Source of the DNA: a virus
Lineage: Duplodnaviria; Heunggongvirae; Uroviricota; Caudoviricetes
Strand: one strand, 5' to 3'
Virus record (IMG/VR): IMGVR_UViG_3300021979_000001
Location: 2,948-66,947 of that record
Length of the DNA stretch: 64,000 bases
Under the pieces are notes generated by a model. The model worked only from the letters and a program-made list of their open reading frames with translations, made no database searches and was not told the origin of the DNA. Below, in pieces: positions 19,665 through 35,946 of the stretch (the first letter of the stretch is position 1; each line of letters begins with the position of its first letter). The position numbers and the translations under genes are program-made.

Positions 19665-19976
19665 GCGTATAAATTCCTAATGAAATGTCTGTTAGTGCCT
19701 GTTCGGGCAAACTGCTATACAGACCGACCAAAAAGTAAGGAAATATGGTTATGCTACACAGTAATACATCATCGTGGTGGTGATATATAACGTGACAAAT
19801 ACACTGACATTACCATTTTCCGGTGGTTAGAGGCGTTATTTGCCTCCGATGGGTCTCACCTTATTCTCGTTCATTTTTGCCGTCAACATAATTTTTTGAA
19901 GAAATCGCAATTTTACAAAAAAAAATCGGTATCCATATATTTCCCCCCGTGTTCGTGGATTATTCCGTATCGAAAA

Positions 19977-20882
19977 ATGATAAATAAAAATATGCAAGTT
20001 TCAGATTTTATGTCACAACAAGACCTTACCGAAATATTCACGCCCAACATCCGCAAAACCGCTGCGGGTGCGTTGGTTGGTGCCGGTCTGGCAGCATCGT
20101 CAATGATTGGGCTTGGGTATGGTCTATCAAATACAACGGACACCACAACAATCAATGAACCACTACCAATACCCAGGGGCAAACCCGAAATTAAATCAAC
20201 ACCAACCCCCAAAATCTCCTCACAGGCGCAGTCTAGCAATATTCCAGCACCTCGCATGCGACCATCTACCAAAGACCTCTCACCGGTTGAATTAAAGGCC
20301 CAGTTCATTGATAAAATGGTGCCTATGATTAAATCAGTGAACGATGGTATCGATGAAGTTAGAAATAAAGTTGAAGAAATTTCACATAAAAAGGTAAAAA
20401 ACAAATCTGATCTTGCATACATCAGTAAGTTGATGTCAGAATATAATGTTACCGATGGCGATATAACAACGTTGATTGCCAGGTTACAACCGATTCCGGT
20501 TAGCCTAGCATTGGCACAAAGTGCAGTAGAAAGCGGTTGGGGAACATCGCGATTATCACAAGATGGTAATGTTATGTTTGGTCAAAAGAAATGGACGGAT
20601 GACGAAAATACCATCAAGGCATCAGAAGATGGCACAAAATATGCGGCATTTGGTGATCCGAAAGATAGTATTGAAGCATATGCCAGAAATCTCAATTCGC
20701 ATCCCGCATATAAGCATTTACGTGCTGCCCGCTGGTGGCTTAAAACAGAAAAGGGTCGCAATGCAACAGGATTAGACCTTGCACCACACTTGACCAAGTA
20801 TTCCACAAAAGGCGATGAATACACTAAACAAATTGCCCGTGTTATTAGACAGAATGATTTAACCAAATGGGATAATTCGTGA
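19977..20882 (+). CDS. Membrane-anchored glucosaminidase-domain peptidoglycan hydrolase (Bax/FlgJ-like)
   Basis: N-terminal TM segment AAGALVGAGLAASSMIGLGYGL plus the motif LALAQSAVESGWGTSRL..GNVMFGQKKW. The track ORF starts at a TTG at 19896; the first ATG is at 19977. Confidence 0.65.
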   Translation: MINKNMQVSDFMSQQDLTEIFTPNIRKTAAGALVGAGLAASSMIGLGYGLSNTTDTTTINEPLPIPRGKPEIKSTPTPKISSQAQSSNIPAPRMRPSTKDLSPVELKAQFIDKMVPMIKSVNDGIDEVRNKVEEISHKKVKNKSDLAYISKLMSEYNVTDGDITTLIARLQPIPVSLALAQSAVESGWGTSRLSQDGNVMFGQKKWTDDENTIKASEDGTKYAAFGDPKDSIEAYARNLNSHPAYKHLRAARWWLKTEKGRNATGLDLAPHLTKYSTKGDEYTKQIARVIRQNDLTKWDNS

Positions 20883-21578: not shown

Positions 21579-22667
21579 TTACTTGAACTGATCACCAAAC
21601 GGATCAAAATCTTTTCCGCATGTTTTGGCACATACTTTTAATTTACCTGCGGCACAACTTGGTTTTGACCATGTGCTTTCGATGTAATTGAACATTGGCC
21701 CGGCTAAAATCTTTTCAACTGAAACCATGATACCATTGATTGCATCTTTGCCACCAACATGCTCGATTATTTTCCAAAGAGGCGATGATTTTGGTTCCAA
21801 ATACCATACATAAAGCTGGTTGGCGGTCCAACAGCATGGAAATACCAAACCTTCTGCCGATATATATATTGACCCTTCGGTATCAGTTTTGCAGGTGATC
21901 GGGGTATTATCCAAATAATTTTGCAAGCTACCATGCTTCGCAATTAATGATTGTTCCTGTTGCAAAGCATTGTTTTGGTATTGCGGATCAATTGGTTTTT
22001 CCAGGACGTGTTTTACGGTCCCATCCTTACCCATAACATCTTGCGAATCTTTGCCTTTTAGTTGGTTATTTGAGAAGAACCGCCCGGTTTTTTTAACCTG
22101 GAAGTGAATAAAACCCATTTCTGCGGCAAGGGTGCGGGCATCGTCCACCTGGTGTTCATTGTGTTTGAAAACAATATAATCCCAAATTGCGCGGCCACCA
22201 GATTGAATAAATGATTCCACATTACGCATAATAACATCGAACCGGCATCCTTGACGATACAGATGATTTGTATCATCAAGACCATCAATACCAAACCGAA
22301 CACTGTCACCTTTTTTTGATAACAGTTTACCGAGTTCTCCCCACCATTCGGGATTTTTCGCGCTACCATTGGTATTCATACCAAGGGTAATATTTGGGTT
22401 CATTTCTCGGAAATATTTCATTACGTCCAAGGTATCTTGGGCTGCAATTGGGTCGCCAAAATTACCACACATGTAAATTCGATTAAGACTTAGTAAAAAT
22501 TCCTTTGTGAAGATTTTTTTACAATCATCTAACGTCAATTCGGTAATCGGCAGGGATGGGTTTACCCATGTTCCAAGGACATTTCGTCCACATTGCGGGC
22601 ATGATGCATTGCATCTGGATGTGATTTCCAAATGCACAGTTTTAATACGAGAATATTCAAATGCCAT
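21579..22667 (-). CDS. Radical SAM enzyme with SPASM/twitch-like C-terminal Cys cluster (copy 1)
   Basis: CNASCPQC (CX3CX2C) at residues 19-26. Also CKTDTEGSIYISAEGLVFPC (CX13GX4C) and CAAGKLKVCAKTC. Confidence 0.85.
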   Translation of the reverse strand: MAFEYSRIKTVHLEITSRCNASCPQCGRNVLGTWVNPSLPITELTLDDCKKIFTKEFLLSLNRIYMCGNFGDPIAAQDTLDVMKYFREMNPNITLGMNTNGSAKNPEWWGELGKLLSKKGDSVRFGIDGLDDTNHLYRQGCRFDVIMRNVESFIQSGGRAIWDYIVFKHNEHQVDDARTLAAEMGFIHFQVKKTGRFFSNNQLKGKDSQDVMGKDGTVKHVLEKPIDPQYQNNALQQEQSLIAKHGSLQNYLDNTPITCKTDTEGSIYISAEGLVFPCCWTANQLYVWYLEPKSSPLWKIIEHVGGKDAINGIMVSVEKILAGPMFNYIESTWSKPSCAAGKLKVCAKTCGKDFDPFGDQFK

Positions 22668-22672: not shown

Positions 22673-22939
22673 TTAATCCCAGGTAAGATAAAACAGAATT
22701 GCGCTATCTATATCATTAAAAAGCCAAAATTGCGGATTGAATTGCTTCGTTATTATATTATTGTCATTGCACCATTTTGTAATTTCATTTTGCACCAAGT
22801 ATGCTTTATCAAAGTCGATTTTAACAACCGTGTTAAATGAAACGTTGCGTAGTATATCACACAAATGGTCATTCACAATATTACCCCCGATAGGACCGTA
22901 AGTATGTGAAAAGTGATCAATCGACATTATTTTATTCAT
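22673..22939 (-). CDS. hypothetical small protein (88 aa) immediately upstream of the rSAM gene
   Basis: ORF with a 4-nt overlap to the upstream gene and a 5-nt gap to the rSAM gene. Confidence 0.5.
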   Translation of the reverse strand: MNKIMSIDHFSHTYGPIGGNIVNDHLCDILRNVSFNTVVKIDFDKAYLVQNEITKWCNDNNIITKQFNPQFWLFNDIDSAILFYLTWD

Positions 22940-23637
22940 TTTATACCAATCATCATAAAACGGGTATAATTGGCGGTGCTAATATATTTGTCTCCTTCGA
23001 ACATAACATTTGTCATTGGGGCCATTGCTTTAAACTCGCCAATACTGTTCACACAATTGATGTGATCGCGTCCACCAAATAGGTTATTTGATTGGATAAC
23101 GCATAGCGTTCCAGACGGAATCATGTTCCACCAGGTAGCAACATCAATATGTTCGCATGATGTATTAACGATCACATCGGGACGTTCATGTAATGTTACA
23201 ACAGACCCATCAGATCGTTTCGTATCATATTTATGTCCCGTATAATCAATATTGAACATATCACCGGTTGATGCCTTGAACCGCCATCCATTTACAACAT
23301 ATGGTATTTTATTTACCGCTTCTGCAATAACGGCGCATTCGGGATCGATGTCAAAACTTCGAATAACTCCTATATCAAGATTTGATCTGAACAGCATTGC
23401 GGGTAGTGTTCCCAGCCATCCCCCCAGAATGAACATAGTGGTCATTTTGGGATTGATTTTTGTTAGTTCCGCAACCAGCCATTTTTTTGATTGGAGTTGC
23501 CCCCATGACAATGCATCGTCCCAATACGCATCTGGATATTGGGATATAGCTTTGCGTAAATTAGATAAAAACTGGTCATCTGTGATATATTCCAGCTTAT
23601 GTAAAATATCATGCGATTGTATCATAAACGTGGTCAC
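22936..23637 (-). CDS. Putative class I SAM-dependent methyltransferase-like protein
   Basis: Gly-rich loop MFILGGWLGTL followed by an acidic strand IRSFDIDPE. The match is weak. Confidence 0.35.
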   Translation of the reverse strand: MTTFMIQSHDILHKLEYITDDQFLSNLRKAISQYPDAYWDDALSWGQLQSKKWLVAELTKINPKMTTMFILGGWLGTLPAMLFRSNLDIGVIRSFDIDPECAVIAEAVNKIPYVVNGWRFKASTGDMFNIDYTGHKYDTKRSDGSVVTLHERPDVIVNTSCEHIDVATWWNMIPSGTLCVIQSNNLFGGRDHINCVNSIGEFKAMAPMTNVMFEGDKYISTANYTRFMMIGIK

Positions 23638-24349
23638 TCTTTTTAAATTGTTCAGTTAGCCAGTTCCAATCATTGATTTTCGCCAACTCGGGTTGATTAT
23701 CGCAATATTTGATACCATATTGTTCGCCCGCTTTTGCACCAGCTATTGAGAACTGACCATATTCACGATCAGTGCCCATCGTTTTCCACGTGGATAATCG
23801 TTGTTCGGTTTCAAAATCCTTTTGGTTTTTTATCGTTTTGCTTGACAACTTAACACATTCACGAAATGCGCTTTTCCAGGTCTCAAATGGTGATGTATTA
23901 TATCGTGTTTCAGAAACCAGTTCATTAACTATATGATATGATGTGGTTACAGATGTCGTCATGTCAATACTAGTGGTATCCACATCTATCAAATGTCTGG
24001 TAGAAAATAGCTTGATTGCACCATATCCATAAACCAAATCATTGACTGCATTTTTACACCGATACACATGGACTCCATTTGGGTCTGGTTCAAATGATGG
24101 GATAAATTCAAATTTATCATAGACCCAATTATCTGCATCAACGGTGAAGAAAAAATCAGTAGTTGATTGCTGCGCACATGCCATATGGGCGGCATGAATG
24201 CCGGTCACACCATGAACACGATCTGCCCATGGTGCAACATCTAACAATCTTGCATAATTCTGTTCGCTATTTGGTTCATTGTAACTTAAAAAGAATATGT
24301 CATACATTGATAAAAATCTTCGTTTTTGTTTATACGTGTCATACGTCAT
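23609..24349 (-). CDS. GT-A-like putative glycosyltransferase, paralog 1
   Basis: Motifs YDIFFLSYNEPN, HGVTGI and FFFTVDADN (DxD-like), shared with 24568..25470 and 25467..26123. Confidence 0.4.
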   Translation of the reverse strand: MTYDTYKQKRRFLSMYDIFFLSYNEPNSEQNYARLLDVAPWADRVHGVTGIHAAHMACAQQSTTDFFFTVDADNWVYDKFEFIPSFEPDPNGVHVYRCKNAVNDLVYGYGAIKLFSTRHLIDVDTTSIDMTTSVTTSYHIVNELVSETRYNTSPFETWKSAFRECVKLSSKTIKNQKDFETEQRLSTWKTMGTDREYGQFSIAGAKAGEQYGIKYCDNQPELAKINDWNWLTEQFKKSDHVYDTIA

Positions 24350-24578
24350 CCCAAGTCACCAGTTCAATATATTGTGCTGGGCCAACCTCACTGGGCAATC
24401 CCCCATATTCATTAACGTAATGACGTATGATCGCTTTGTAAAATCCTTGGCTATCATGATGTGCTTCACGTGTGAAGACGTATAATTCATTATTGCCATA
24501 TTTGTAATGGGCCATCGCAAGACTAGACTCGGTTTGTAACTTCAATAAATCCATGGCATCAAACATATTATAATACAA
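24339..24578 (-). CDS. hypothetical small protein (79 aa)
   Basis: ORF that overlaps both neighbouring genes, suggesting translational coupling. Confidence 0.45.
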   Translation of the reverse strand: MYYNMFDAMDLLKLQTESSLAMAHYKYGNNELYVFTREAHHDSQGFYKAIIRHYVNEYGGLPSEVGPAQYIELVTWDDV

Positions 24579-25470
24579 CCTTATCCATATTAGGGAACAT
24601 CAAACCTGATCGAACCGGGTTAATGTATGTCATCTTTACCCACCGACTAGCATCAGGTCCAAGCATTGGTAAATGAAGTCCCAAATGATGTTCTAATAGT
24701 TTGCCATATTTTTCTGCATTCGTCCAGGCACACTCATTTTTATGGGTAATCCATTCTGAATCAAACCAGTCGTAATTATTGATATTAGATATGGATTTAT
24801 GTAATACCCAAGTATCATAAAGACCTAATCTTGCACCATATATTGCCTCTCGACCATGCGTCACATCACTACCAACACACAACCACATCATTAACCGGGA
24901 AAGATTTGATTTGGCAATACGATCAATATCCCACTTGTTATCATCGGGTTTGATGCCATTAGGTAAACTCAATTTTACGCCTTCTCGATACCCCGCACGA
25001 AAGGCTTGATATGCCGATTGGTTACACATTACTGTTGACCCCAATTGATCAATTTGCATATAACGCAATGACCAACAAAAATCAGTTGTGTCGCGACCAA
25101 CGGTTGCATTTTCATGTGTTTTCATATTGACAATATTAACCGGCCAGCATTTGATTCCACCGTTCCCATATGCCAACCCATTGATGATATTTGTTGCTTT
25201 AAACGAATAAACCACATCTTCTAAATTAGTATCATCAAATTCATATTCGAAAATATTTGGATTGATTTCGTTGTCACCATCAATTGTTACAAATCTGGGC
25301 GTTTTGCTCAATCGTGCCGCCCGTTTATGGGCTTTATCAAAACCTTTAACCCCATGAATTCGATGAACCTGCGGGAAATAACCTTCAATTTTCTCATAAA
25401 AGGAATCTGCATATGGTTCATCGTAACTAATGTAAAAAATATCCAGGTCAGATAATCGATAGGTTGTCAT
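24568..25470 (-). CDS. GT-A-like putative glycosyltransferase, paralog 2
   Basis: Motifs LDIFYISYDEP, HGVKGF, FVTIDGDN, YGNGGIKCW and YREGVKL. Confidence 0.4.
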   Translation of the reverse strand: MTTYRLSDLDIFYISYDEPYADSFYEKIEGYFPQVHRIHGVKGFDKAHKRAARLSKTPRFVTIDGDNEINPNIFEYEFDDTNLEDVVYSFKATNIINGLAYGNGGIKCWPVNIVNMKTHENATVGRDTTDFCWSLRYMQIDQLGSTVMCNQSAYQAFRAGYREGVKLSLPNGIKPDDNKWDIDRIAKSNLSRLMMWLCVGSDVTHGREAIYGARLGLYDTWVLHKSISNINNYDWFDSEWITHKNECAWTNAEKYGKLLEHHLGLHLPMLGPDASRWVKMTYINPVRSGLMFPNMDKVVL

Positions 25471-26123
25471 TTTATATCCTCAAATTTTAATTTTAGCCAA
25501 GCAAAGTCGTTGATTTTTTTCAACGCGGTTATGTTGTGTTTATTGCGTAATCCATACTGTTCTCCGGCAACTGCGCCTTTGACTACCATATTCGCCCCAT
25601 ACCCGGTTCCAGGATGTTTCCATTGTTCAAGGCGATTAGCATTTTCATAATCATCGGAAACTGCAAGTTTTACGCATTCACGAAATGCTGCTCGCCAACA
25701 ATCGAAATCTGATGAATTATAATGTGTGATTGACTTGACTTCGGGGATAATTTTTAGTTCAAAAGAAGTGGTCATGTCTAATGGTTGATCTGACATATTA
25801 AGAACAATTTCTTTTGGAAATAGTTTTATACCACCCCAGCCATATTCTAACCCGTTAACTGGGTTTCGTGCATACCAAAGATGCACATATTTGCGATCCC
25901 ATGCGGAAAGTTTGATGGTGAAATCAAAATCAATAATTTCTGAATCCGCATCAATAACAAAAAAATTTCTGGTTTTGGATAGCTTGGCGCACTCATAATG
26001 TGCATTATGAATTCCGGTTATTCCAGACACATGCGACGAATGCGGTGCATGTCGAACAAGTTTTTTCCAATGTTGTTGTGCCATTGGTTCATTATAACTT
26101 AAGAAAAAAACGTCATACATCAT
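25467..26123 (-). CDS. GT-A-like putative glycosyltransferase, paralog 3
   Basis: Motifs YDVFFLSYNEP, SGITGI, FFVIDADS, YGWGGIKLF and FRECVKL. Confidence 0.4.
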   Translation of the reverse strand: MMYDVFFLSYNEPMAQQHWKKLVRHAPHSSHVSGITGIHNAHYECAKLSKTRNFFVIDADSEIIDFDFTIKLSAWDRKYVHLWYARNPVNGLEYGWGGIKLFPKEIVLNMSDQPLDMTTSFELKIIPEVKSITHYNSSDFDCWRAAFRECVKLAVSDDYENANRLEQWKHPGTGYGANMVVKGAVAGEQYGLRNKHNITALKKINDFAWLKLKFEDIK

Positions 26124-26218
26124 TTAACTTTCGGCTTTATTCCAATGACCATTATAATACCGAAATCGATAGTCAAAATCCATATATTTAAAAAAACTCA
26201 CAAAATGCTATTTTTATG

Positions 26219-26247
26219 TTGACGAAATTTTTTTAGCGTTTAATATA
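26219..26247 (+). promoter_or_regulatory. Sigma70-like promoter candidate for the NYN gene
   Basis: TTGACG, a 16-17 nt spacer, then TAATAT/AATATA, about 50 nt upstream of the ATG at 26298. Confidence 0.4.
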
Positions 26248-26297
26248 CACGTTATCGACAGGGGAAACGGTTTCCCTTAAAAAAAATTCTTTGATGA

Positions 26298-26870
26298 ATG
26301 GAAAAACAAATGTCTAATGCAAATCTTTTTGGTTCTAAACCCAGTGATCGCGTTGCTGTGTTTTTCGACGGGGCGAACCTGTTTGCCAGCACTCGGGCCT
26401 TGGACGTTCACTTGGATTATTCCAAGCTGACCGAAGCCCTGGGCACGGGATGCAACATGATGCGGATGTATTACTACACCGCCCTGCCGGATGGTGATGC
26501 TCAATGCGCGGTTCGTCCGCTTGTGGATTGGCTCGACTATAACGGCTATACCATGGTCACGAAGCCAACCAAGGAATTCACCGACTCCGCAACTGGTTTG
26601 CGGAAAATCAAAGGTAACATGGACATCGAAATTGCAATTGATGTGATGGAAATGGCACCGCACCTTGACCATGTGATCCTGTTTTCCGGTGATGGCGATT
26701 TCCGGCGTCTGGTTGAGGCGGTTCAACGCAAAGGGGTGCGCGTTACTGTTGTATCGACCGTCAAATCGAACCCATCGATGATTGCGGATGAACTTCGTCG
26801 CCAGGCCGACAAATTCGTCGAACTTGCGGACATCATGTCGTATGTCGTGCGGGATGTGCGGGAGAAATAA
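26298..26870 (+). CDS. NYN/LabA-like (DUF88) domain protein
   Basis: VAVFFDGANLF...NMDIEIAIDVM...VILFSGDGDFRRLVEAVQRKGVRVTVVS. GC content is well above the flanks. Confidence 0.75.
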   Translation: MEKQMSNANLFGSKPSDRVAVFFDGANLFASTRALDVHLDYSKLTEALGTGCNMMRMYYYTALPDGDAQCAVRPLVDWLDYNGYTMVTKPTKEFTDSATGLRKIKGNMDIEIAIDVMEMAPHLDHVILFSGDGDFRRLVEAVQRKGVRVTVVSTVKSNPSMIADELRRQADKFVELADIMSYVVRDVREK

Positions 26871-26908
26871 TTCCATCATACCAGCACGGTTAGTTATTAA
26901 TCAAAAAA

Positions 26909-26934
26909 GCGGTCCTTTATGGGCCGCTTTTTTT
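26909..26934 (+). terminator. Rho-independent terminator
   Basis: GCGGTCC-TTTAT-GGGCCGC followed by T7, with an A6 run upstream. Confidence 0.7.
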
Positions 26935-27048
26935 GTAAATAAACTCAATTACCATTGGGTTATAATTACGCGATGGATTGCTGATTTAAAAATAGACTTT
27001 TAAAGTAATCATCAAGTATTATAACTCAAATTATTGAGTTATTTTGTT

Positions 27049-27771
27049 ATGAATACTTTATCGATAAATGAACTAAGAAATGATTTAAAAGAATCAACAA
27101 ATAATATGTCCTGGACCGTAAGTAATATTATCACCGATGATGGTCTTTTACTACCACCAACGTCCGATTCTAAAGAAATATCGAAGTTATTAGAGCGACA
27201 AGCGGAAATACATTTGAGCAAGATTGCGGATAAGTATGGGTATGTTTTTGAAACAAGTAGTAGACAAAATACATACCCGGACGGAACATTAACAAAATAT
27301 GATGCTGGCAGAATACTCCATAGAATAGCAATAGATGCAAAAAGCACGTTTGAAAAACCATCCATGAATTTGACACTTGGTAGCTACACATCATTTTTAT
27401 TGAACGACAATAAAAGCATTACATATCCATATTCGACATATGATGACCATTGGGTTATGATTTTTACATATCGTCGAACAGAGGATGGTTCTTATGATTC
27501 AGTCAGATGGTATTTAACTGAAAAAGCCCGCATCACCGGGTTGGTGGCGGGTAGCGGCAACACAAAAAATATAGGGAGTGTTCGTTTCAGAAAAGTAGAT
27601 GATTTAACATCAATTAATGGGCCATTTGCCCGTTTCAAAAACATGAAAGGGGCTTCTGATCACTATTGGCGCAACTATGATCGTTTGCGCAAAGAAATCA
27701 AAAGCCCTGGCGATTTGATAATGCACCCGGAATTTGTTCAATTCACAAATCTGGAACGTAGTAATTGTTGA
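27049..27771 (+). CDS. EcoRV-family type II restriction endonuclease (PD-(D/E)XK)
   Basis: Matches EcoRV as I recall it along its length: KIADKYGY, QNTYPDGTL, IAIDAKST, LTLGSYTSF, ITYPYSTYDDHWVMIFTYRR, AGSGNTKNIGSV, HYWRNYDR. Confidence 0.75.
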   Translation: MNTLSINELRNDLKESTNNMSWTVSNIITDDGLLLPPTSDSKEISKLLERQAEIHLSKIADKYGYVFETSSRQNTYPDGTLTKYDAGRILHRIAIDAKSTFEKPSMNLTLGSYTSFLLNDNKSITYPYSTYDDHWVMIFTYRRTEDGSYDSVRWYLTEKARITGLVAGSGNTKNIGSVRFRKVDDLTSINGPFARFKNMKGASDHYWRNYDRLRKEIKSPGDLIMHPEFVQFTNLERSNC

Positions 27772-28828
27772 TTTTGTGTTGTAAAGCTGGAATTTTTGAT
27801 GATATTCCTTCGGTGGAAAGAATAATCAATCGATCTGCGGTCACGTAACTTTCGCACTTTGCATTGGTAAATGTCCCTAATTCGTTCCCATATCCGATTA
27901 GGATACCGCAATTAAGATTTAAAATATTGTTTGCGGTTTGTTTCCAGTCAATAACCGTGCGGTTAATGGCAACAGAGATCACACTATCTCCTTTGGCCGT
28001 GAATAAATCTTCTATGATTTCTTCGGTTCCAGGCGCGACCATCGCCCGAACCGCCATTGCTGGATAACTGCGCATGGGACGAATAACCGATGTTGCACCG
28101 GCAGCAATGATACGTTTTCGATTATGATCTGATACGCATTCAGCGATGATGGGAACGGATGGGTTTTGTTCACGAACGTGGTATACCGTGGAGAACGTGA
28201 TTGAGTCATCATCATTGCTGCCACTAGGTGCGATAACAAAGATCGCACGGCATTTGGTCAAACCGACTTGTTCGGACATGCCAGGACTGTTGATGTTTCC
28301 ATGATTGAAAATTGTTCGATTGTCAAAATCGCACAGGTTGGTCGTCCATTGGTCAGTGAGGATATTAATTGCGATTTTATTATATTCTGGAATATCACGA
28401 ATTTCCCGGATGAATTCCTGAAAATATTTTACCGCATTTGGTCCATTCGGTGACCCGATAACTAAAATGTGATCGTTCAATTTCCAGTTCCATTTCCCGG
28501 TTTTTATTGCATTTGATCGAAATTCGCGCATATCTTGATAAATGTCAATCATTCTAGCAAAAATTGCCAATGCTGGAATAAACAATACCATAACGCTTAT
28601 TATTCGACCGATAGGGGTTGATGCGGACAAATCCCCATATCCAATTGTAGTGATACTGGTTGAAGCCAACCATAACGCATCACCGATGGTCATATTTTCA
28701 TATATGACCATCGTTGGAACAAATATCCCGATACATAGTAATAAAATTGCACCTAATTCAAAGAACTCGCGTTTTGTCGTCTTGTTTCGAATTAGTTGAC
28801 GATTGCGCCAAAAAAACAAAAAGTGCAT
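27743..28828 (-). CDS. 2TM potassium channel with C-terminal RCK/TrkA-N-like domain
   Basis: Selectivity filter TSITTIGYGD lies between two TM helices. It is followed by ILVIGSPNGPNAVKYFQEF, which looks Rossmann-like. Confidence 0.8.
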   Translation of the reverse strand: MHFLFFWRNRQLIRNKTTKREFFELGAILLLCIGIFVPTMVIYENMTIGDALWLASTSITTIGYGDLSASTPIGRIISVMVLFIPALAIFARMIDIYQDMREFRSNAIKTGKWNWKLNDHILVIGSPNGPNAVKYFQEFIREIRDIPEYNKIAINILTDQWTTNLCDFDNRTIFNHGNINSPGMSEQVGLTKCRAIFVIAPSGSNDDDSITFSTVYHVREQNPSVPIIAECVSDHNRKRIIAAGATSVIRPMRSYPAMAVRAMVAPGTEEIIEDLFTAKGDSVISVAINRTVIDWKQTANNILNLNCGILIGYGNELGTFTNAKCESYVTADRLIILSTEGISSKIPALQHKINNYYVPDL

Positions 28829-28855
28829 ATCATTCTCAATCGGGGTAAATGATGA

Positions 28856-29215
28856 TCACGCGGTTTTGGTAGCTTTGTCCTTTGCGGACTGCTCTTTCCG
28901 ATGACGGTTCATGATCAAATGATCTGCCAACATACGGGCCTGGGTCCGTTCTTCCATCATGGTGCGAGCAAGCGATGATACCCGCTTCAAATCTCGCTGT
29001 GACAGAACTACATGTGCAATCATGTCATTCCGGGCACATGTCGCAATACAGTTTTTAAGCCACCGACTTTTTTCTGAAATTTGACGATATTTTAACCGCC
29101 AAATAACAATAAAATCATGGTATGATTTTTTATCGGTAATGATCGTTTTGATGTTAAAATCAACAACATTGATTTCGGGTTCGTTTACTTTAATCTGTTG
29201 CTGCATTTTCGTCAC
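28856..29215 (-). CDS. hypothetical protein
   Basis: 119-aa ORF with a basic C-terminus. Confidence 0.5.
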   Translation of the reverse strand: MTKMQQQIKVNEPEINVVDFNIKTIITDKKSYHDFIVIWRLKYRQISEKSRWLKNCIATCARNDMIAHVVLSQRDLKRVSSLARTMMEERTQARMLADHLIMNRHRKEQSAKDKATKTA

Positions 29216-29684
29216 CTTCTTGGCTAAGTTTGATGATTTCTTTTAGACGCCGTTCAACTTCGGAGTGTATCATCACGTTGATTTTATGCGGAAGTTTCGT
29301 TTCTACTGTTTTTGTTACGACATCCATTAATTGTTGCTCAAAGTCACACAACAACGCTGCAACTTTAAATTGCACCGACGCAATTAAATCATGGTCTGTG
29401 ATGAATGTTTCACATGCGGTTTCGATTGTGCGTTGCAATCGAGTCATAAATTGTGAATTTGCAGGTATGGATACACTGCTATGGTCTGCCAATATATCAC
29501 CAAAATGAGATTCAAATATATTTTTGGCAATACTTTCCACGCGGGGCTTTAATTGACTATCCGTCAATATTGACATGTGCTGCGACACCGCAGTCTTAAT
29601 TACTTTTTCGGTGATTGCAATCTCACAATCTGGGTTTTGTTCCAGAATTTGTTGCAATTGATCCGATCCTAAATAAATTTTCAT
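29190..29684 (-). CDS. hypothetical protein
   Basis: ORF 29190..29699; the first ATG is at 29684. Confidence 0.5.
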   Translation of the reverse strand: MKIYLGSDQLQQILEQNPDCEIAITEKVIKTAVSQHMSILTDSQLKPRVESIAKNIFESHFGDILADHSSVSIPANSQFMTRLQRTIETACETFITDHDLIASVQFKVAALLCDFEQQLMDVVTKTVETKLPHKINVMIHSEVERRLKEIIKLSQEGDENAATD

Positions 29685-29717
29685 AACAACAATCACCAAC
29701 TATATTACATAAGATAT

Positions 29718-29778
29718 AAAAACAATAGCACGATATTTTATCATACACAAGCATGAATATTATCGTGCTATTGTTTTT
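29718..29778. terminator. 18-bp perfect inverted repeat, possibly a bidirectional terminator or operator
   Basis: AAAAACAATAGCACGATA, 25 nt, TATCGTGCTATTGTTTTT, located between two minus-strand genes. Confidence 0.5.
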
Positions 29779-29784
29779 ATTTAA

Positions 29785-30141
29785 TTATTTCACGATTTGG
29801 TAATCGATGGTATTAGCCTCGGCAAGACTAATCCAAAAACGTTGTTTGATGATATGTTCCAATGGGGATGACATAACTCGGAATGTCACGGAATCATATT
29901 TTGGTAGATTATTCCGAATATAGATTCGATCAATCGTCAACGCGGTTTCTTGTGGTATAACCACATTCATGAAGGACGGGGTTTTCCTGTTTTCATAATA
30001 ATCATCCAGGATGTCCTCATATTTTGTTCCTGCAATTTTCGCGGAAAATTTCGCATTTCGGCTATCGACAAAATTAATTGAGCATGATAGCGGTTTAAGT
30101 AATAGTAACGTTGTGCGCAAAGGTGGGATGAATAGTTTCAT
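29785..30141 (-). CDS. hypothetical protein
   Basis: ORF 29785..30177; the internal ATG giving MKLFIPPL is preferred. Confidence 0.45.
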   Translation of the reverse strand: MKLFIPPLRTTLLLLKPLSCSINFVDSRNAKFSAKIAGTKYEDILDDYYENRKTPSFMNVVIPQETALTIDRIYIRNNLPKYDSVTFRVMSSPLEHIIKQRFWISLAEANTIDYQIVK

Positions 30142-30571
30142 ATGCCATCTCCATTGGTTTAAACAAGGATACACCAATCATCAACGATAATAGTGTAATA
30201 ATCGCCAAAATAAGGAATACAACAAAAATCAGACTGGAATTATCCCCGTGTGTTGCAAAATTTTCTTTCATAAACCCAAGGGAATACATAATAACTTCAT
30301 ATAAGAAGAACAGGCATAGCGCCCCAATAGCATATCGAACTGCCTGCAAAATCATCGGAGATAATGCGAGATTAACAATCAATATCCACTGAATTGCGGA
30401 ACCTAGTTGTGAGTCAATCATGTTCTCTATTGGAATATTCTGTTCTTTTGCTACATCAGTTAAAATTTGATTTATCTGATTAGACAATGTATCCGCATGT
30501 GCGATATTTGTTATTGCAAAAACACAAGCGGCAATTAGCAGAACCGACCCTATCGTATTTTTGAATGTCAT
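30095..30571 (-). CDS. Secreted or membrane protein with multiple TM segments
   Basis: Signal-like MTFKNTIGSVLLIAACVFAITNIAHA plus about 3 hydrophobic helices. Confidence 0.55.
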   Translation of the reverse strand: MTFKNTIGSVLLIAACVFAITNIAHADTLSNQINQILTDVAKEQNIPIENMIDSQLGSAIQWILIVNLALSPMILQAVRYAIGALCLFFLYEVIMYSLGFMKENFATHGDNSSLIFVVFLILAIITLLSLMIGVSLFKPMEMAYETIHPTFAHNVTIT

Positions 30572-30576
30572 TTCAC

Positions 30577-31209
30577 TTACGCCCAATACATAGCTGAAAT
30601 AGGGCGCAATTCATTTACACCTTCATCAGTCATCAATCCAATCTTTGTCATCCACCAACGAATGGCACCTGGAACGGCGGGTAACGTATTTGCTAAAAAG
30701 TCAGGGTCATTATAATCAAATATGACCGGTTTGTAATTTTTATCCGTTCGTGAAAGATTATAATAGGAAAACCCATGATCATGAACCCGACAAAACGAGT
30801 TGAAGTTATCATATTGTTTTGTGGTATTATCATATACCAGCATAGTATAATCTAGATCATTCGCATATCTAGTCCATTCTTTTTTTTCATTAGGATCGCT
30901 ATAAAATAAAATGTAGTCATCCCCAAAGACGTTCGATTCATCGCAAATGTAGTGAAATAAATCATCTCCGCTTTGTATTGTTCCTTTAAAGAAAATATGT
31001 TGATTATGTTGTTTCCTTATTTTTAAATGTTCTTCTTTGGTTATTTTGAACTCATGTTTGTAATATTTTATTTTGTTACAGACTTCGGAATGTAAATCAT
31101 AATAGTCGCTGTCTGATGCTACACAATCAGGAAAATTCAAATCCGCCAATCCCTTGAACTTAGTTACAGGCATTCCCCATCCTTGCACCACATGTAATCT
31201 ACTGCCCAT
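30577..31209 (-). CDS. hypothetical protein
   Basis: 210-aa ORF. Confidence 0.5.
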   Translation of the reverse strand: MGSRLHVVQGWGMPVTKFKGLADLNFPDCVASDSDYYDLHSEVCNKIKYYKHEFKITKEEHLKIRKQHNQHIFFKGTIQSGDDLFHYICDESNVFGDDYILFYSDPNEKKEWTRYANDLDYTMLVYDNTTKQYDNFNSFCRVHDHGFSYYNLSRTDKNYKPVIFDYNDPDFLANTLPAVPGAIRWWMTKIGLMTDEGVNELRPISAMYWA

Positions 31210-31235
31210 GATACTACTCCGTTATATATTGCTAT

Positions 31236-31273
31236 AAAAACACCCACCACATACATTATAATATGGTGGATGT
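31236..31273 (-). terminator. Rho-independent terminator after the SPFH gene
   Basis: On the minus strand: ACATCCACCAT..ATGTGGTGGGTGT followed by TTTTTAT. Confidence 0.5.
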
Positions 31274-31289
31274 TTAATTCCAATGATTT

Positions 31290-32687
31290 TTATTCGCCGG
31301 TGAATGGTTTCGACGAGTGACGGGTTGTCAGCTTATCGAGTGCCCCAAGGCTGGTTACAATGTCCAACGACGTTGGTGCCGCAACGGATGAACCACCACC
31401 ATAATAAATATCCGGCATCGACACTGTAATGTCTTTTAGATTTGGATAAATAATTTGGGCGGTATCGCGTGCCAATTCTGCCATATAAATATCTTTGGCA
31501 TCTTGTAACGCCTTGTATTTGGCACGGGCAACGTCGGCTTCGGCCAGGCCAGTTTCACGAATAGATTCTGCCTTGAATTTTGCGGCCTGGGCCGTCGCAT
31601 TTTGAATATCTTTATCCGCAACTGCCATTTCAAGTTCCTTCTGTTTTTTCAGAAGGGCAATTTGCTTTTCCTTGTTTTGTCGAACTTTTTCCAGTTCCGC
31701 AGTTTGCCGTTCCACTTCCACCTGCTGAACAGCCCGGATAATAGCCAATTCTTTTTCTTTTTGTGCTTTTTGCACATCCCGCGCCTTCTCAATTTCCATA
31801 TTGAGAGCGATGGTTTTTGCTTCGGTGCGAGCGGTATCTTGTTCCTGCAACGAAGTGATACGTTTTGCGACCAACAGCTTTTTATCCCGCAGCAACGTTG
31901 TCAACTGGGGATCGGGTTCGGGACGACCGATAGTAACCTGCCGAACTGAAATCCCATACAGTTCAAGCGGGTTTGAAATCCGCAATTCGGCCCCGGCAGC
32001 ATTTGTGGTGATCACGTTTTTCCAAACTAGTTGGTTTCGGCTTTCCAACTTGTTTGCATCGGAATTCTCCGAATTAACGGCAGCAAAGTCGGTTTGCTGG
32101 ACTTCAACTTGTTTCCGTGTGGTTTGATACAAACCATAGGTTAACTGATTTTCAAGTTTTACCTTGAAATCGTTTAGGCCCCCTTGGAAAAATTCTTCCC
32201 CGGTATATTGCGTCCCTGTGACCACCGTGACGTTCTTGGCATTTTTAACCATCAAAGAATCAATGAGGTTGTCTTTGCCACGAAACTCCGAATGCATCAG
32301 AAGAATTTTCTGAACATCAGATGACAATTTAAACCGGAAGGTGGCCGGAATATCTGCAATATAAGTATCAGCAAATTGCACTGATACTGGGTCAAGCTGC
32401 CGCGTTGACGACGCTTCTTCACTGGCATCTTGATTGCCGAATGATATGACCACTGCTTGTGGATATTCGTAGATGGTAGTAAAGAATGGGATTTTAGCAT
32501 GAACCCCAGGCTCGGTATATACGATCAACCGGCCCAAAAGGGTATCTTGCAGGACATAAGTGATGCCTGCTGCGGTGGTGAAAAATGATGAAAACCCGAT
32601 GATTAAGGCAAAAATGGCAAAAATGCCGCCAATAATCCACCGTTTGATAGATTGTAAAATCATGTCATGTTCTTCTGTTTGGTCCAT
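31290..32687 (-). CDS. SPFH/band-7 (prohibitin/flotillin-like) membrane protein
   Basis: N-terminal TM segment, PGVHAKIPFFTTIYEYP, and a long charged coiled-coil region. Confidence 0.6.
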   Translation of the reverse strand: MDQTEEHDMILQSIKRWIIGGIFAIFALIIGFSSFFTTAAGITYVLQDTLLGRLIVYTEPGVHAKIPFFTTIYEYPQAVVISFGNQDASEEASSTRQLDPVSVQFADTYIADIPATFRFKLSSDVQKILLMHSEFRGKDNLIDSLMVKNAKNVTVVTGTQYTGEEFFQGGLNDFKVKLENQLTYGLYQTTRKQVEVQQTDFAAVNSENSDANKLESRNQLVWKNVITTNAAGAELRISNPLELYGISVRQVTIGRPEPDPQLTTLLRDKKLLVAKRITSLQEQDTARTEAKTIALNMEIEKARDVQKAQKEKELAIIRAVQQVEVERQTAELEKVRQNKEKQIALLKKQKELEMAVADKDIQNATAQAAKFKAESIRETGLAEADVARAKYKALQDAKDIYMAELARDTAQIIYPNLKDITVSMPDIYYGGGSSVAAPTSLDIVTSLGALDKLTTRHSSKPFTGE

Positions 32688-32765
32688 CGCTCGATCTTCC
32701 TTATTTAATTATAAAAATCATGTCTGCTTGCGTATATCAAGTAACATACTAACTGTAAACAAAAA

Positions 32766-33560
32766 TTATCGTTCGTCATTAATAATTTTTGTCGCTTGAT
32801 TTTTCAAGGTGGTTCCGTCTTCGGCCAAGTTACCAAGTTTCTCGGTAGAACACGGATTGGTCAGGATATTCAGCAAACTGCCAGCACCGGCCCAGTTAAC
32901 CAGATCACTAACTGCACCATTGATGTAGTTTGAAATTTTATTGGTTATATCATTTATTTTATTGGAAATTTCAGATAGCGCATCCCCAATTGATTGTCCG
33001 AGTTCTGAAATAACTTCGGAAAATTTATTTGCAACGGTTGCCAGCATAGCTACGATTGCGGCCAGACCTTGCGCAACTGCATTTGCAACCTGTTCCAAAA
33101 TATTTTCAATAAATTCGCCGATATGCGCCAGGGTTGATGTGATTTTACTGGCAATATCATTTAAATCATCTAAAAACTCATTAAATGCCGAACATGGATC
33201 AAAACCACTTGTCGTTGCCGATTTCACCGAAGCATGGCTATTCATAATCGATAAATTCTTTGGTAATTCTGAAAAAACATTTACTTGTTGCATTTCCGCC
33301 GCATTAATAGATGATTGTATATTGGACACATCTAATTCAACCCCTTCGGCAATTGCAATATCTTCTGGTGTTGCTAATGGATCATTTTTAACCGCACTGA
33401 TCGCATCAGTAAGGCCACCACCTGTGGTGGGCAGCAATCTGTTAAAACTATATGTTAACGATTTCATTTGGTTTACGGGTGAAAATGCGGTTCCTGATTG
33501 AATATCAGAAAATACCCCAGCAATATCGGTTGTTGTTGGAACAAAATCGACAATACTCAT
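32766..33560 (-). CDS. hypothetical protein
   Basis: 264-aa ORF, predicted helical and rich in A, I and N. Confidence 0.5.
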   Translation of the reverse strand: MSIVDFVPTTTDIAGVFSDIQSGTAFSPVNQMKSLTYSFNRLLPTTGGGLTDAISAVKNDPLATPEDIAIAEGVELDVSNIQSSINAAEMQQVNVFSELPKNLSIMNSHASVKSATTSGFDPCSAFNEFLDDLNDIASKITSTLAHIGEFIENILEQVANAVAQGLAAIVAMLATVANKFSEVISELGQSIGDALSEISNKINDITNKISNYINGAVSDLVNWAGAGSLLNILTNPCSTEKLGNLAEDGTTLKNQATKIINDER

Positions 33561-33570
33561 AAAAAATCCT

Positions 33571-33840
33571 TTAACTACGATTTACGTTTGGTGATCCCGT
33601 TAAAATTACCGCACCACATGCACAAACTGCCGCCACGTGGGCTGTTTCTTGTCCTTCGACACTTACATTGGGATGCACCGCAATAATTTGATTAATGCCG
33701 TGATAGGGAATCGGACATGAGACCAGATCACCGACACGGGCAGTTGAAATACCATTTGTGGTATGTTTGACCGCGCCGGTGATAATGGTTGCGCCATGGT
33801 CGCTGGTATCCCCTATGCGTGATACCGAAAACCCTGCCAT
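33571..33840 (-). CDS. PAAR-domain protein (spike tip)
   Basis: MAGFSVSRIGDTSDHGATIITGAVKHTTNGISTARVGDLVSCPIPYHG. Uses the internal ATG of track ORF 33571..33972. Confidence 0.6.
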   Translation of the reverse strand: MAGFSVSRIGDTSDHGATIITGAVKHTTNGISTARVGDLVSCPIPYHGINQIIAVHPNVSVEGQETAHVAAVCACGAVILTGSPNVNRS

Positions 33841-33844
33841 TTTT

Positions 33845-34150
33845 TTATGCCAGGCGCAGACTTGATGTCTGCTCCGAATAAAAATGGGACATATTGGTAT
33901 TTGCCTGCACTGGCATAATTGCAATACCTGTTTTGTTAATTTCAATAGATGATGATGGGTCACATCCCACAAGAACAGGCTCTAACTGAATGCTTTGCTG
34001 GTTATCGATGATGACGCGAACGAGCGAAAACGGTTTCTGCAATGTAATGGAATCAGTCGAGGTTTTTAATAACCGCCCAATGATTTCTTCACCAGAAGTC
34101 AGTTTTGCGATTACTGTTGAATTTATTTCGGGTTTCTTTTCGATAAGCAT
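33845..34150 (-). CDS. hypothetical protein
   Basis: 101-aa ORF ending 4 nt before the PAAR start. Confidence 0.5.
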   Translation of the reverse strand: MLIEKKPEINSTVIAKLTSGEEIIGRLLKTSTDSITLQKPFSLVRVIIDNQQSIQLEPVLVGCDPSSSIEINKTGIAIMPVQANTNMSHFYSEQTSSLRLA

Positions 34151-34213
34151 GGGTTGTCCTTAAAATTTGATTGAACCCCGACTATATCCCATCAATAGAG
34201 AAAGAACCAAAAT

Positions 34214-34438
34214 TTATTTTGGTTGTTGATAATAAAATCGCAACACACGCCCGTTGAGAACCAAAACTTTCTTTTTTATCAGAACCTTCACATCGCGGTT
34301 TTGATTGCCACCATAGTTGTTTACATTACAAAACCCCAAGCCAACCAGACGCATAATCGCCCCACGTCGATACTTGCCAACACTGGTATGAACTATCTTA
34401 AATAAGTTATGGGGTTCATCAGGGTATGATTTGCACAT
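34214..34438 (-). CDS. hypothetical small protein
   Basis: 74-aa ORF only. Confidence 0.3.
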   Translation of the reverse strand: MCKSYPDEPHNLFKIVHTSVGKYRRGAIMRLVGLGFCNVNNYGGNQNRDVKVLIKKKVLVLNGRVLRFYYQQPK

Positions 34439-34440
34439 CG

Positions 34441-34878
34441 CTATAACACCAACCGCGCCATAACGGATTCAGGCTTGCTTTCAAACCAAATACGATAATA
34501 CGTCCGGTTCGTTTTGTGTTGCGCGACTTCTTTACATAAAAATTTATACTGACATAGATTGTGCAATTTAGTGTTTAATTCATTCATCGTATATGTATCG
34601 TGGTTTTCATTAATCGTTACCGAATGACACAACCAACGTGGTTTTATGTAGTTTTTATTGATCACCGCAAAGATCATAGAACATAACAAATATCCGGTGA
34701 AATAACCTACCGTCATTACAAACCAGATTATATCAATATAATCTAAAAACCATACGATTCCAGTCATTCCTGCAAAAAGACCAATACTGATTACACTCAA
34801 TTCAGGAATAATCCGCTGGATTTTAATTACATCTATAATCAAAACATAACTCCTTATTGCGCCATTGATAAAAATCAA
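34441..34878 (-). CDS. 2-TM membrane protein, paralog family member 5
   Basis: Two N-terminal TM helices, PRWLCH, and C-terminal YRIWFESKPESVMARL. Confidence 0.5.
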   Translation of the reverse strand: MIFINGAIRSYVLIIDVIKIQRIIPELSVISIGLFAGMTGIVWFLDYIDIIWFVMTVGYFTGYLLCSMIFAVINKNYIKPRWLCHSVTINENHDTYTMNELNTKLHNLCQYKFLCKEVAQHKTNRTYYRIWFESKPESVMARLVL

Positions 34879-35371
34879 TGGGTTGTGGTAATTGATGATC
34901 GCATATTAGCGAACATAGTAAAGCATCCTCGTATTTCATAAAAATCACATTAATGTGTTTATAATACAGCATAATTATCTCACGGGTATTACTGTCTATT
35001 TCGCATATGTGTTCCCAGCGTGCCATAACTCGATATTTAGATGAATATTCTAGTTGACAAATTCTAGAAATCAATTGATGTGTTTCATTATAATTAACGT
35101 TGCCAATATTAATCAAATATGCAGTGCGTGGTAACCAATGTTTATGGTATTTTGTATTATGAACTTTGCGTAAAATCAATATTTGCACATAGAATAATGA
35201 ACACAAGGAAATGAATAATATTAATGCCCCGGTTGATATATCCGGGCTTTCTGGTAAAATTGAAATTGACAAATATACACATGCAACCACGCCATATATT
35301 ATATACATGGCGGCGAAAAATAACCCACTACGATTTGGGAAATATATTTCTTGAAACTGTTGTATCGTCAT
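34823..35371 (-). CDS. 2-TM membrane protein, paralog family member 4
   Basis: QQFQEIYFP, two TM helices, KHWLPRTAY, and FMKYEDALLCSL. Confidence 0.55.
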   Translation of the reverse strand: MTIQQFQEIYFPNRSGLFFAAMYIIYGVVACVYLSISILPESPDISTGALILFISLCSLFYVQILILRKVHNTKYHKHWLPRTAYLINIGNVNYNETHQLISRICQLEYSSKYRVMARWEHICEIDSNTREIIMLYYKHINVIFMKYEDALLCSLICDHQLPQPIDFYQWRNKELCFDYRCN

Positions 35372-35373
35372 TA

Positions 35374-35946
35374 TTATGCAGTCATATCCAGTATAGTTAA
35401 ATGCCGTTGGTTATGTTTAATTTTACGTATATCCCCATTCCACGTCAATGCGCATAATGTCGCGTCATTAATCGACGCAAAAAGAACGATGCTTTTACCA
35501 TCTAATGTCGTCAACACCGAATGCATAAAATGACTTCGATAGCAATAATTCATCGTTGAATTGGCAGCAAGCCAATCTTGACCTTCGGGTGTCAATATTG
35601 GCAATTCCGATATTACCGCATATATGTTCCAGGGCATCCATTGTCGGTATGATAACTGGGTATCCTCCATGGCACTACGGATGGTGATAAACGTAAATGC
35701 GAACACCACGAACCAAACAATACCAGCAAAAATGTTGCTTAATAATATCACTATGTCAATTGTTGCCATACTGATTGCAAACGTGGCGAAATACACGTTG
35801 GGAATCAAAATCTGTAGCCATATAATCAGGGTAGATTTCATGTTTATGTTTTCCACAAATGGTATTTTGCTGGGTTTTAGGGTTTTGGGTGGGGGGATCA
35901 AAAACTGGTTATATTGTTCGATGCCGGATGTATTTTGCGTTCCCAT
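35374..35946 (-). CDS. 2-TM membrane protein, paralog family member 3
   Basis: EQYNQFLIP, two TM helices, RQWMPWNIY, and LFASINDATLCALTWNG. Confidence 0.55.
   Translation of the reverse strand: MGTQNTSGIEQYNQFLIPPPKTLKPSKIPFVENINMKSTLIIWLQILIPNVYFATFAISMATIDIVILLSNIFAGIVWFVVFAFTFITIRSAMEDTQLSYRQWMPWNIYAVISELPILTPEGQDWLAANSTMNYCYRSHFMHSVLTTLDGKSIVLFASINDATLCALTWNGDIRKIKHNQRHLTILDMTA

Follow-up and report, generated by a model that had tools for sequence, protein, structure and literature searches.

Results

The channel gene and its product

The DNA analyzed here is a stretch of 64,000 nucleotides from a virus of the Caudoviricetes (positions 2,948 to 66,947 of IMG/VR record IMGVR_UViG_3300021979_000001; the whole stretch is termed the window), and the gene in question is its minus-strand open reading frame (ORF) 27743..28828, which begins with ATG and encodes a product of 361 amino acids (aa). 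A preliminary description of the locus had proposed a phage-encoded potassium channel with two transmembrane helices (2TM) and a cytoplasmic RCK-like domain. The ORF, Pfam, an AlphaFold2 (AF2) model, Foldseek and a profile comparison (E=1e-27) agree on this assignment, and the elements listed in that description, namely TM1, pore helix, filter, TM2 and a Rossmann-like domain with the motif ILVIGSPNG, are all present and could be mapped on the AF2 model (Table 1). An independent contig, with genes called by JGI itself, and a Logan contig yield the same 361-aa product. Pfam recognized two domains in the protein, Ion_trans_2 over residues 29–85 (2.6e-11; 43.7 bits at a cut-off of 22.5) and Slo-like_RCK over residues 117–228 (4e-6; 26.9 bits at a cut-off of 24).

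Table 1. Position in the window of the channel gene, its parts and the convergent nuclease gene.
Feature	Position	Strand	Basis and remarks
Complete 2TM-RCK K+ channel gene	27743..28828	-	ATG 28828-28826, stop TGA 27745-27743; ORF list, Pfam, AF2
N-terminus, residues 1-21, MHFLFFWRNRQLIRNKTTKRE, hydrophobic then basic	28766..28828	-	pLDDT <50 for residues 1-13
TM1 (outer helix), residues 22-43, FFELGAILLLCIGIFVPTMVIY	28700..28765	-	Within AF2 helix 15-44
Pore helix (residues 48-60) and filter T61-I-G-Y-G-D66	28631..28687	-	AF2 helix 48-60
TM2 (inner helix), residues 72-94, running on to 110 as linker	28547..28615	-	AF2 helix 72-110
Linker motif G111-x-W113-x-W115 and codon 117 (TTG, Leu) at RCK boundary	28478..28498	-	Sequence, family columns
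RCK N-lobe, Rossmann-like, residues 118-250	28079..28477	-	Pfam, AF2 beta/alpha pattern, MthK alignment
RCK crossover helices (residues 251-277, 'RPxRxYP...PGxE') and C-terminal lobe (281-355)	27746..28078	-	AF2
Tail-to-tail overlap (29 nt) of channel gene and EcoRV-like nuclease gene	27743..27771	.	ORF coordinates
EcoRV-family type II restriction endonuclease homologue	27034..27771	+	Pfam Endonuc-EcoRV 2.3e-28; PADLOC REase_II 2.7e-32

The AF2 model has a mean predicted local distance difference test score (pLDDT) of 80.6, with values of 89–94 in the pore, and contains two TM helices only. The segment ALWLASTSITTIGYGD (residues 51–66) leads from the pore helix into the filter and includes TTIGYGD, and IGRIISVMVLFIPALAIFARMI makes up residues 73–94 of TM2. 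The RCK domain comprises about 240 aa; HILVIGSPNG opens strand 1 (residues 120–124) of a six-stranded, Rossmann-like lobe with alternating beta/alpha elements, and the part encoded toward the 3’-end of the gene is modeled with helices at residues 256–264, 268–277, 295–304 and 342–355 and strands at 281–294, 309–314 and 328–339. According to the positive-inside rule, the N-terminus is predicted to be cytoplasmic. Like the inactivation ball of MthK, it is first hydrophobic and then basic, and it could act as a ball-type inactivation peptide as in that channel. NCBIfam model PRK10537, which describes E. coli Kch-type channels with a voltage-sensor-like N-terminal domain of six TM helices plus an RCK (at least 425 bits), did not match the protein, the best NCBIfam result being a pore fragment far under its cut-off, and no PADLOC model matched it either.

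A proteobacterial family of 2TM-RCK channels

A phmmer (HMMER) search over 1.84 billion cluster representatives returned 102 clusters at E<=1e-30 (best 5e-73), nearly all of them 340–390 aa long, collinear with the channel and 28–38% identical to it; at E<=1e-10, there are about 280 hits. The proteobacterial proteins among them, of about 360 aa and annotated for instance as 'ion channel' (Microvirga roseola) or 'potassium channel family protein' (Desertibaculum subflavum), align over their full length with E values from 1e-30 to 1e-73. All 12 invariant residues of the family (W53, T61, G63, G65, D66, G74, G111, D208, E230, R239, P256 and G308) are kept in the phage protein, as are 21 of the 22 nearly invariant columns, the exception being position 78 with Ser instead of the Thr of the family. 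Across 119 family sequences, the filter columns are occupied by T61 in 117, G63 in all, Y64 in 114 (Phe in the other 5), G65 in 118 and D66 in 118, and the linker columns by G111 in 119, W113 in 105 and W115 in 104. Filter, G-x-W-x-W linker, H120, D208, E230, R239 and the 'RPxRxYP...PGxE' region are thus common to the family. When 185,579 species genomes were scanned with a five-sequence family alignment as query, full-length members were found in about 32 species, almost all of them Alpha- or Gammaproteobacteria, with a best identity of 37% to the channel. Judged by these alignments, this uncharacterised Alpha-/Gammaproteobacterial 2TM-RCK family is the channel's true family. The phage protein differs from it in having Leu (TTG) instead of Met (ATG) at position 117 and P85-A86 instead of a G-G hinge, and in that its gene belongs to a jumbo phage and not to a cell.

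The cellular members occur in varied contexts: in Desertibaculum subflavum (P0251) the gene lies beside an ISC operon, in Microvirga roseola (P0101) on a repABC plasmid, and other members in an RND-efflux neighborhood or in a PspA neighborhood (P0248); P0252 and P0102 are bacterial as well. In a neighbor-joining (NJ) tree with Kimura distances and 50 bootstraps, which is not a maximum-likelihood phylogeny, the channel has a long branch and groups with Microvirga P0101, P0105 and P0103 (about 37/50 bootstraps), far from P0253, a phage channel described below. The GC content of the gene (0.407) and that at third codon positions (GC3, 0.395) agree with the roughly 0.39 of the phage background. 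Since identity to anything known does not exceed 38% and GC and GC3 are phage-like, the channel gene is an old, ameliorated acquisition from the proteobacterial family or from an unsampled donor and not a recent capture; the recently captured host gene that the preliminary description had named as a refuting scenario is contradicted by the same data.

Resemblance to MthK

Compared with a profile of the family, MthK was matched with E=1e-27 over its residues 20–316, covering pore, RCK N-lobe and C-lobe (with the end of the alignment falling at MthK residues 316–319), followed by BK RCK1 at about 1e-20. In a Foldseek search of the PDB with the AF2 model, the top 15 matches were all MthK chains (4.5e-16 to 1e-11), followed by GsuK and Slo1/Slo2. 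MthK is therefore both the best profile match and the best fold match, and the architecture is of the MthK type. Both proteins (MthK: PDB 1LNQ, 6OLY, 6U68) have a 2TM pore with a TxGYGD filter and, directly after it, one RCK consisting of a Rossmann N-lobe, crossover helices and a C-lobe, at similar lengths of 336 and 361 aa. They differ in that identity is only about 19–20%, that MthK is of archaeal and the family of proteobacterial and phage origin, that MthK lacks the GxWxW linker and RPxRxYP motifs, and that the phage channel has an acidic insertion of 6–7 residues after strand D. GsuK and BK/Slo channels carry two tandem RCKs, as do the family members P0100, P0102 and P0002 (600–657 aa), whereas the phage channel has a single RCK and lacks both a voltage-sensor domain and an NAD site of the GsuK type.

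The label 'MthK/Kch-like' of the preliminary description can accordingly be kept for MthK as far as the architecture goes. It does not extend to Kch, given two instead of six TM helices and the lack of a match to PRK10537, nor to the ligand site, as only one of the three Ca2+ ligands of MthK is present; on the available alignments, 'MthK-like' describes the build of the protein and not how it would sense a ligand.

A probable internal start at the pore/RCK boundary of the family

The octameric gating ring of MthK is completed by soluble RCK subunits that are translated from an internal start, M107. In the proteobacterial family, position 117, three residues before H120, is Met in 92 and Leu in 24 of the 119 sequences, and several database proteins of about 240 aa start exactly at position 117 of the family alignment. 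At the nucleotide level, an ATG was present at the RCK boundary in 28/28 bacterial genome loci, preceded in 21/28 by a GGAG core at a distance of 4–10 nt. This Shine-Dalgarno (SD) core derives from the W-[R/S]-W codons as TGG-AGN-TGG (GGAG or GGAGG). The codons at the middle position are AGG or AGA in 15/15 cases of Arg (0 CGN) and AGY in 6/6 cases of Ser (0 TCN), with AGG accounting for 3–9% of Arg codons in these bacterial genomes. At the same boundary, both SD and start codon are missing from P0102 and P0002, two relatives with tandem RCKs; tandem-RCK forms would need no soluble partner. The exclusive use of AGN codons, the ATG and the absence of both signals from the tandem-RCK forms therefore indicate that the family is under nucleotide-level selection for an internal ribosome-binding site at the RCK boundary, and a soluble RCK subunit is probably co-expressed, as in MthK. 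An internal start at M100, directly behind TM2, was rejected, since no SD-like sequence lies upstream and the position is not conserved.

The phage and the neighborhood of the channel gene

The exact channel protein is encoded on a contig of 457,165 bp, and identical channel proteins with identical neighbors were obtained from two independent samples (JGI metagenome 3300021977 and SRA run SRR7168050). Phage genes in the window include those for a ribonucleotide reductase (RNR) with split large subunit, the RNR small subunit, a DnaB-type helicase, a primase, an exonuclease and a virion structural protein; most window ORFs have no Pfam match, and no capsid gene, terminase gene or tRNA was found in the window. 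The helicase is matched by 3,255 phage records, the two best being, at 52% identity each, Phosso of Sinorhizobium (469 kb) and Atu_ph07 of Agrobacterium (490 kb), with PA5oct-like phages next. Going by these genes, the source is a jumbo phage of about 457 kb distantly related to Atu_ph07 and Phosso, and owing to this relationship its host is probably a proteobacterium. A megablast search with positions 27000–29500 gave no match among phage records.

The channel gene is the last one in a co-directional minus-strand cluster of about 9 kb (36965 to 27743) that also contains a PAAR gene, a gene for a tape-measure-like DUF7217 protein, an SPFH/Band_7 gene and genes for small multi-TM proteins. The PAAR-motif protein has 89 aa (33571-33840, minus strand), the DUF7217 coiled-coil protein lies at 32766-33560 (minus strand) and the SPFH/Band_7 protein of 465 aa at 31290-32687 (minus strand). 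A tie of the channel to this upstream SPFH/Band_7 gene, or to PspA (encoded next to P0248), was considered and rejected, as neither association is conserved across loci.

On its other side, the channel gene abuts an accessory block with two nucleases, EcoRV-like and NYN, on the opposite strand. The overlap of about 29 nt with a convergent endonuclease gene noted in the preliminary description amounts to exactly 29 nt, the partner being an EcoRV-family nuclease, and recurs in two other assemblies (in one of them at 7971-7999). Among the tested ORFs adjoining the EcoRV-like gene no methyltransferase was recognized, and the ORFs at 22936-26123 are without Pfam match; the EcoRV-like protein may be an orphan restriction endonuclease directed against host or rival DNA. 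The NYN/LabA-like nuclease gene (26298-26870, plus strand; Pfam 4e-36, PADLOC NYN) has a GC of 0.51 and a GC3 of 0.58, versus about 0.39, and on this composition looks like a recent foreign acquisition.

Further features of the window lie at a greater distance. Positions 48-18594 (minus strand) hold at least 43 tandem small genes of 66–105 aa with a conserved N-terminal leader (e.g., MVTIYNLYYSIPLITNDETYG or MNTSIELYYCVNSHLTNDDF) and a (Gly-X)n core of 25–36% Gly that is rich in D, Y, H, N and S. Each gene is preceded by a conserved AT-rich element, and higher-order repeats of 300–330 bp are evident; the Gly-rich array explains the GC skew of -0.36 to -0.51 and the lack of ORFs of 150 aa or more in this region. 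It may represent a huge array of structural Gly-rich peptides or of precursors resembling those of ribosomally synthesized and post-translationally modified peptides. Two radical-SAM-like paralogues, at 21579-22667 and 50881-51966 (both minus strand), match phrog_21308, and Pfam Radical_SAM recognizes the first of them (2.4e-8); since the array ends about 3 kb from this gene, a role in peptide modification is conceivable. The large RNR subunit is encoded by two ORFs 144 nt apart (43934-45673 and 45818-47092, plus strand) that match phrog_84 positions 62–497 and 488–794, respectively, and the C-terminus of the first also matches a 'DNA helicase' PHROG; this may reflect a split gene, an intron or what is left of an intein. 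A 328-aa protein encoded at 19896-20882 (plus strand) has a C-terminal glucosaminidase (muramidase-type) domain (Pfam 9.3e-18) and is a candidate endolysin or virion-associated lysin.

Other viral and phage potassium channels

Chlorovirus Kcv and the miniature channels of phycodnaviruses belong to eukaryotic viruses, are carried in an internal virion membrane and depolarize the host during infection. They are pore-only proteins of about 80–125 aa. The wider group of miniature viral channels that includes phrog_14690 spans roughly 80–130 aa and has no cytoplasmic regulatory domain, compared with which the phage channel has 361 aa and an RCK of about 240 aa.

The preliminary description regards chloroviruses as the main source of known viral K+ channels, a view that has been overtaken. 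PHROGs contains two K+ channel families (phrog_14690 and phrog_7872), both of which match our protein in the pore only (residues 26–90), and Greiner et al. (2018, PMC6163359) catalogued K+ channel genes encoding 117–259 aa in phages of Mycobacterium, Vibrio, Acinetobacter, Pseudomonas, Streptomyces and Lactobacillus, with RCK or TrkA mentioned for none of them. With tblastn probes, the catalogued phage channels were likewise matched over the pore region only; those of Myrna and Phabba (Mycobacterium), phi-pp2 (Vibrio) and BillNye (Streptomyces) share a G[Y/F]GD filter and the same pore region, with no match beyond it. Scans of IMG/VR with the family alignment, the channel itself and P0101 returned pore-region matches only, from Kv-like, GluR0-like and pore-only architectures; this type of scan depends on short patterns, so that absence from it is weak evidence. 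GluR0-like channels, in which a periplasmic SBP_bac_3 domain is combined with a K+ pore, were seen on large viral contigs (one at 5279-6340 of its locus, on a contig of 424 kb), and by their domain make-up they would be another class of ligand-gated channels in phages.

Further phages also have RCK-type channels. Those termed P0253 and P0275 come from two huge-phage loci that are syntenic and share 16 genes at 26–77% identity, and the two channels are 42.7% identical over their full length. Besides the channel, the loci carry genes for Gp23-like, ClpP, a T4-type RNA ligase (Rnl1), R2K, CysRS, a class II aminoacyl-tRNA synthetase (aaRS), PTH2 and PNK, and thus look like an island of translation and RNA-repair genes in which a K+ channel is embedded. 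As far as sequence comparison can tell, this pattern fits vertical inheritance under purifying selection. The third case is gp108 of the cultured roseophage DSS3_VP1 (QGH74676.1; MN602266.1, 72586-73572), a 328-aa 'hypothetical protein' in which we find an Ion_trans_2 pore and an RCK-like domain. It was aligned with the family by hhalign at a probability of 98.5% over query residues 40–282, was the only strong fold match in BFVD (Foldseek E=9.6e-11 over 352 columns) and matched MthK residues 42–251 in tblastn; apart from the fold comparison and this MthK probe, no search brought it up, the tblastn with the window's channel included. Among deposited phage proteins, gp108 is the only one we found with the same layout of pore and RCK-like domain; it differs from the window's channel in that identity is about 15–18% and that its RCK is not recognized by Pfam. 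DSS3_VP1, a deoxyuridine-containing phage of 75 kb assigned to the Naomviridae, encodes gp108 between a nicotinamide phosphoribosyltransferase and a glutathionylspermidine synthase, and the paper describing its genome is silent on channels and potassium. RCK-type phage channels were not described in the literature we searched. The placement of the window's channel far from P0253 in the NJ tree implies that phages acquired such channels more than once. The novelty thus lies in the RCK domain and not in a phage channel as such: the protein belongs, as a divergent representative, to a channel superfamily that is already known, and its viral setting is unusual though not unique.

Discussion

We consider it likely that the jumbo phage encodes a functional K+ channel regulated by its RCK domain. 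Assembly into a tetramer with a gating ring, selectivity for K+ and expression during infection are inferred. The pore would lie centrally among four subunits in the inner membrane of the host, with TM1, TM2 and the pore helix carrying the TTIGYGD filter supplied by each of them. In the cytoplasm, their RCK domains would assemble into a gating ring, and binding of a cytoplasmic ligand would make this ring pull the inner helices open. The channel would presumably be made during infection; a tailed phage has no internal virion membrane, and its channel must therefore be made in the host. Once the signal arrives, K+ would flow down its electrochemical gradient, shifting the membrane potential toward the K+ equilibrium and altering the K+ content and turgor of the cell. 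The most likely purpose would be a controlled change of host membrane potential and K+ pool, be it for takeover, for exclusion of competitors or for the timing of late events. Since the channel carries an RCK sensor domain, the phage can probably regulate host voltage or K+ content rather than merely leak ions. Any one specific physiological role is doubtful, although takeover or exclusion via membrane potential and K+ appears to be the most economical reading.

A number of observations weigh against a functional channel of this kind, or at least against its working in the manner of MthK. The AF2 run was that of a monomer and drew on an alignment of only 18 sequences. No relative between 38% and 100% identity was found among the 1.84 billion cluster representatives and the 185,579 species genomes, and the sequenced relatives of the phage lack the channel gene (tblastn, 50,697 phage records). 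Scans for promoters and terminators over positions 26000–37500 yielded 46 versus 42.6 expected and 13 versus 8.8 expected hits, respectively, and did no better than shuffled sequences. In the RCK domain, the Ca2+ triad of MthK is kept at one of three positions: D184 corresponds to S204/N205, at the border of a family-specific acidic insertion (S204-N-D-D-D208), E210 to E230, and E212 to V232, a position that is hydrophobic in at least 105 of the 119 family members. The MthK sequence used here was verified at M107, D184, E210, E212 and G83 and agrees with the HMMER match lines; on its numbering, D208 falls opposite MthK D188, a helix-capping Asp, and was dropped as a candidate equivalent of the ligand D184. 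Strand 1 is not followed by GxGxxG (V-I-G-S-P-N-G-P-N, with a family consensus of N/G-x-P), and TrkA_N stayed at 22.3 bits, below its cut-off of 23.8. The gating ligand would accordingly act neither via the Ca2+ triad of MthK nor as a dinucleotide at GxGxxG. The hinge is P85-A86 where the family has G-G (MthK G83), and the putative internal start of the window gene is a TTG (28478-28480) behind TGGAACTGGAAA, a weak SD, as opposed to ATG in 28/28 bacterial loci; the SDs of the phage's own genes are generally weak. With an altered hinge and a weak TTG start, an octameric ring may therefore not form in the way it does in MthK. The window's variant may have a non-canonical gating ring, or may borrow soluble RCK subunits from a homologue of the host.

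The alternative explanations differ in which part of the functional reading they dispute. That the gene is not of phage origin at all, i.e., an ordinary bacterial channel on a chromosome, on a plasmid or brought in by mis-assembly, is very unlikely. The window does lack capsid, terminase and tRNA genes, and the closest named homologue lies on a Microvirga plasmid, but the helicase is 52% identical to those of Phosso and Atu_ph07 and matched by 3,255 phage records, primase, exonuclease, RNR and virion protein are of phage type, the channel's own cluster contains PAAR and tape-measure-like genes, independent assemblies show the same gene order, and most ORFs are without Pfam match. Somewhat less remote, yet still quite improbable, is a passenger, meaning a bacterial gene that is carried along without a role in infection or is decaying. 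The family is mainly cellular (P0251, P0252, P0101, P0102, P0248; about 32 proteobacterial species), the gene borders an accessory block beside an NYN gene of foreign composition (GC 0.51 versus 0.39), and sequenced phage relatives do without it. Against this stand the intact frame with every family-invariant residue retained, the identity of at most 38% to anything known in a gene ameliorated to phage composition, and the other phage lineage, which keeps a syntenic channel across about 57% sequence divergence.

Two further explanations accept a function of the channel in infection and assign it a narrower task. Phage DNA entry depends on membrane energization, and the channel might be a depolarizing effector in a conflict module, serving superinfection exclusion or an abortive-type response in the manner of lambda RexB and acting together with the adjacent nucleases (the EcoRV-like enzyme and the NYN/LabA-like RNase) instead of aiding host takeover. 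A gated channel would suit a triggered response, its gene overlaps tail-to-tail with a restriction endonuclease homologue and lies 870 bp from that of the NYN nuclease, and PADLOC flags both nucleases as defense-type. However, PADLOC has no model for the channel, the nucleases are encoded on the opposite strand and hence not co-transcribed with it, and the nuclease association is not conserved, because other phage channels have different neighbors (aaRS genes for P0253 and P0275; genes for the nicotinamide phosphoribosyltransferase and glutathionylspermidine synthase in DSS3_VP1). We regard such a module as unlikely. The chances of a lysis timer, in which the RCK would sense a metabolic cue late in infection and the channel would dissipate the potential so that the holin fires, are smaller again and about as low as those of the passenger. 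Holins are triggered by depolarization, and the place of the channel gene at the end of a cluster of about 9 kb with PAAR, DUF7217, SPFH/Band_7 and multi-TM proteins suggests late or virion-associated expression. Yet a K+ channel by itself moves the potential to the K+ equilibrium, as a rule an inside-negative value, instead of collapsing it; neither a holin nor an endolysin gene adjoins, the sole muramidase-like gene (19896-20882) being 7 kb away, and the promoter and terminator scans stayed at the level of shuffled sequences. Conflict module and lysis timer are weaker than takeover or exclusion through membrane potential and K+, because neighbors are not conserved across phage lineages.

Taking the further phages into account, one may ask whether large phages of proteobacteria have repeatedly and independently, in at least three lineages, acquired RCK-gated channels as a tool that couples a cytoplasmic signal to the potential of the host. 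Such channels would act as a regulated 'bioelectric' switch for takeover or exclusion, operated by a metabolite, an ion or a nucleotide, unlike the constitutive miniature channels of algal viruses. This generalization is highly tentative at present, and we would rather bet against it than on it. Two findings speak against an accident: RCK-type channels are found in three unrelated phage lineages, and one lineage of huge phages retains its channel in synteny.

For annotation, there is an immediate gain in that gp108 of DSS3_VP1 and similar 'hypothetical proteins' can now be labelled. The phage gene also draws attention to an uncharacterised proteobacterial family of MthK-like channels whose coding sequences bear a clear mark of an internal start. 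Studies of viral K+ channels have so far dealt with minimal pore modules that lack a regulatory domain. A phage channel with a full RCK would, if functional, mean that a virus switches a K+ conductance in response to an intracellular cue, and the 361-aa protein, which can be cloned, offers a test case for how phages make use of the membrane potential and K+ of their hosts.

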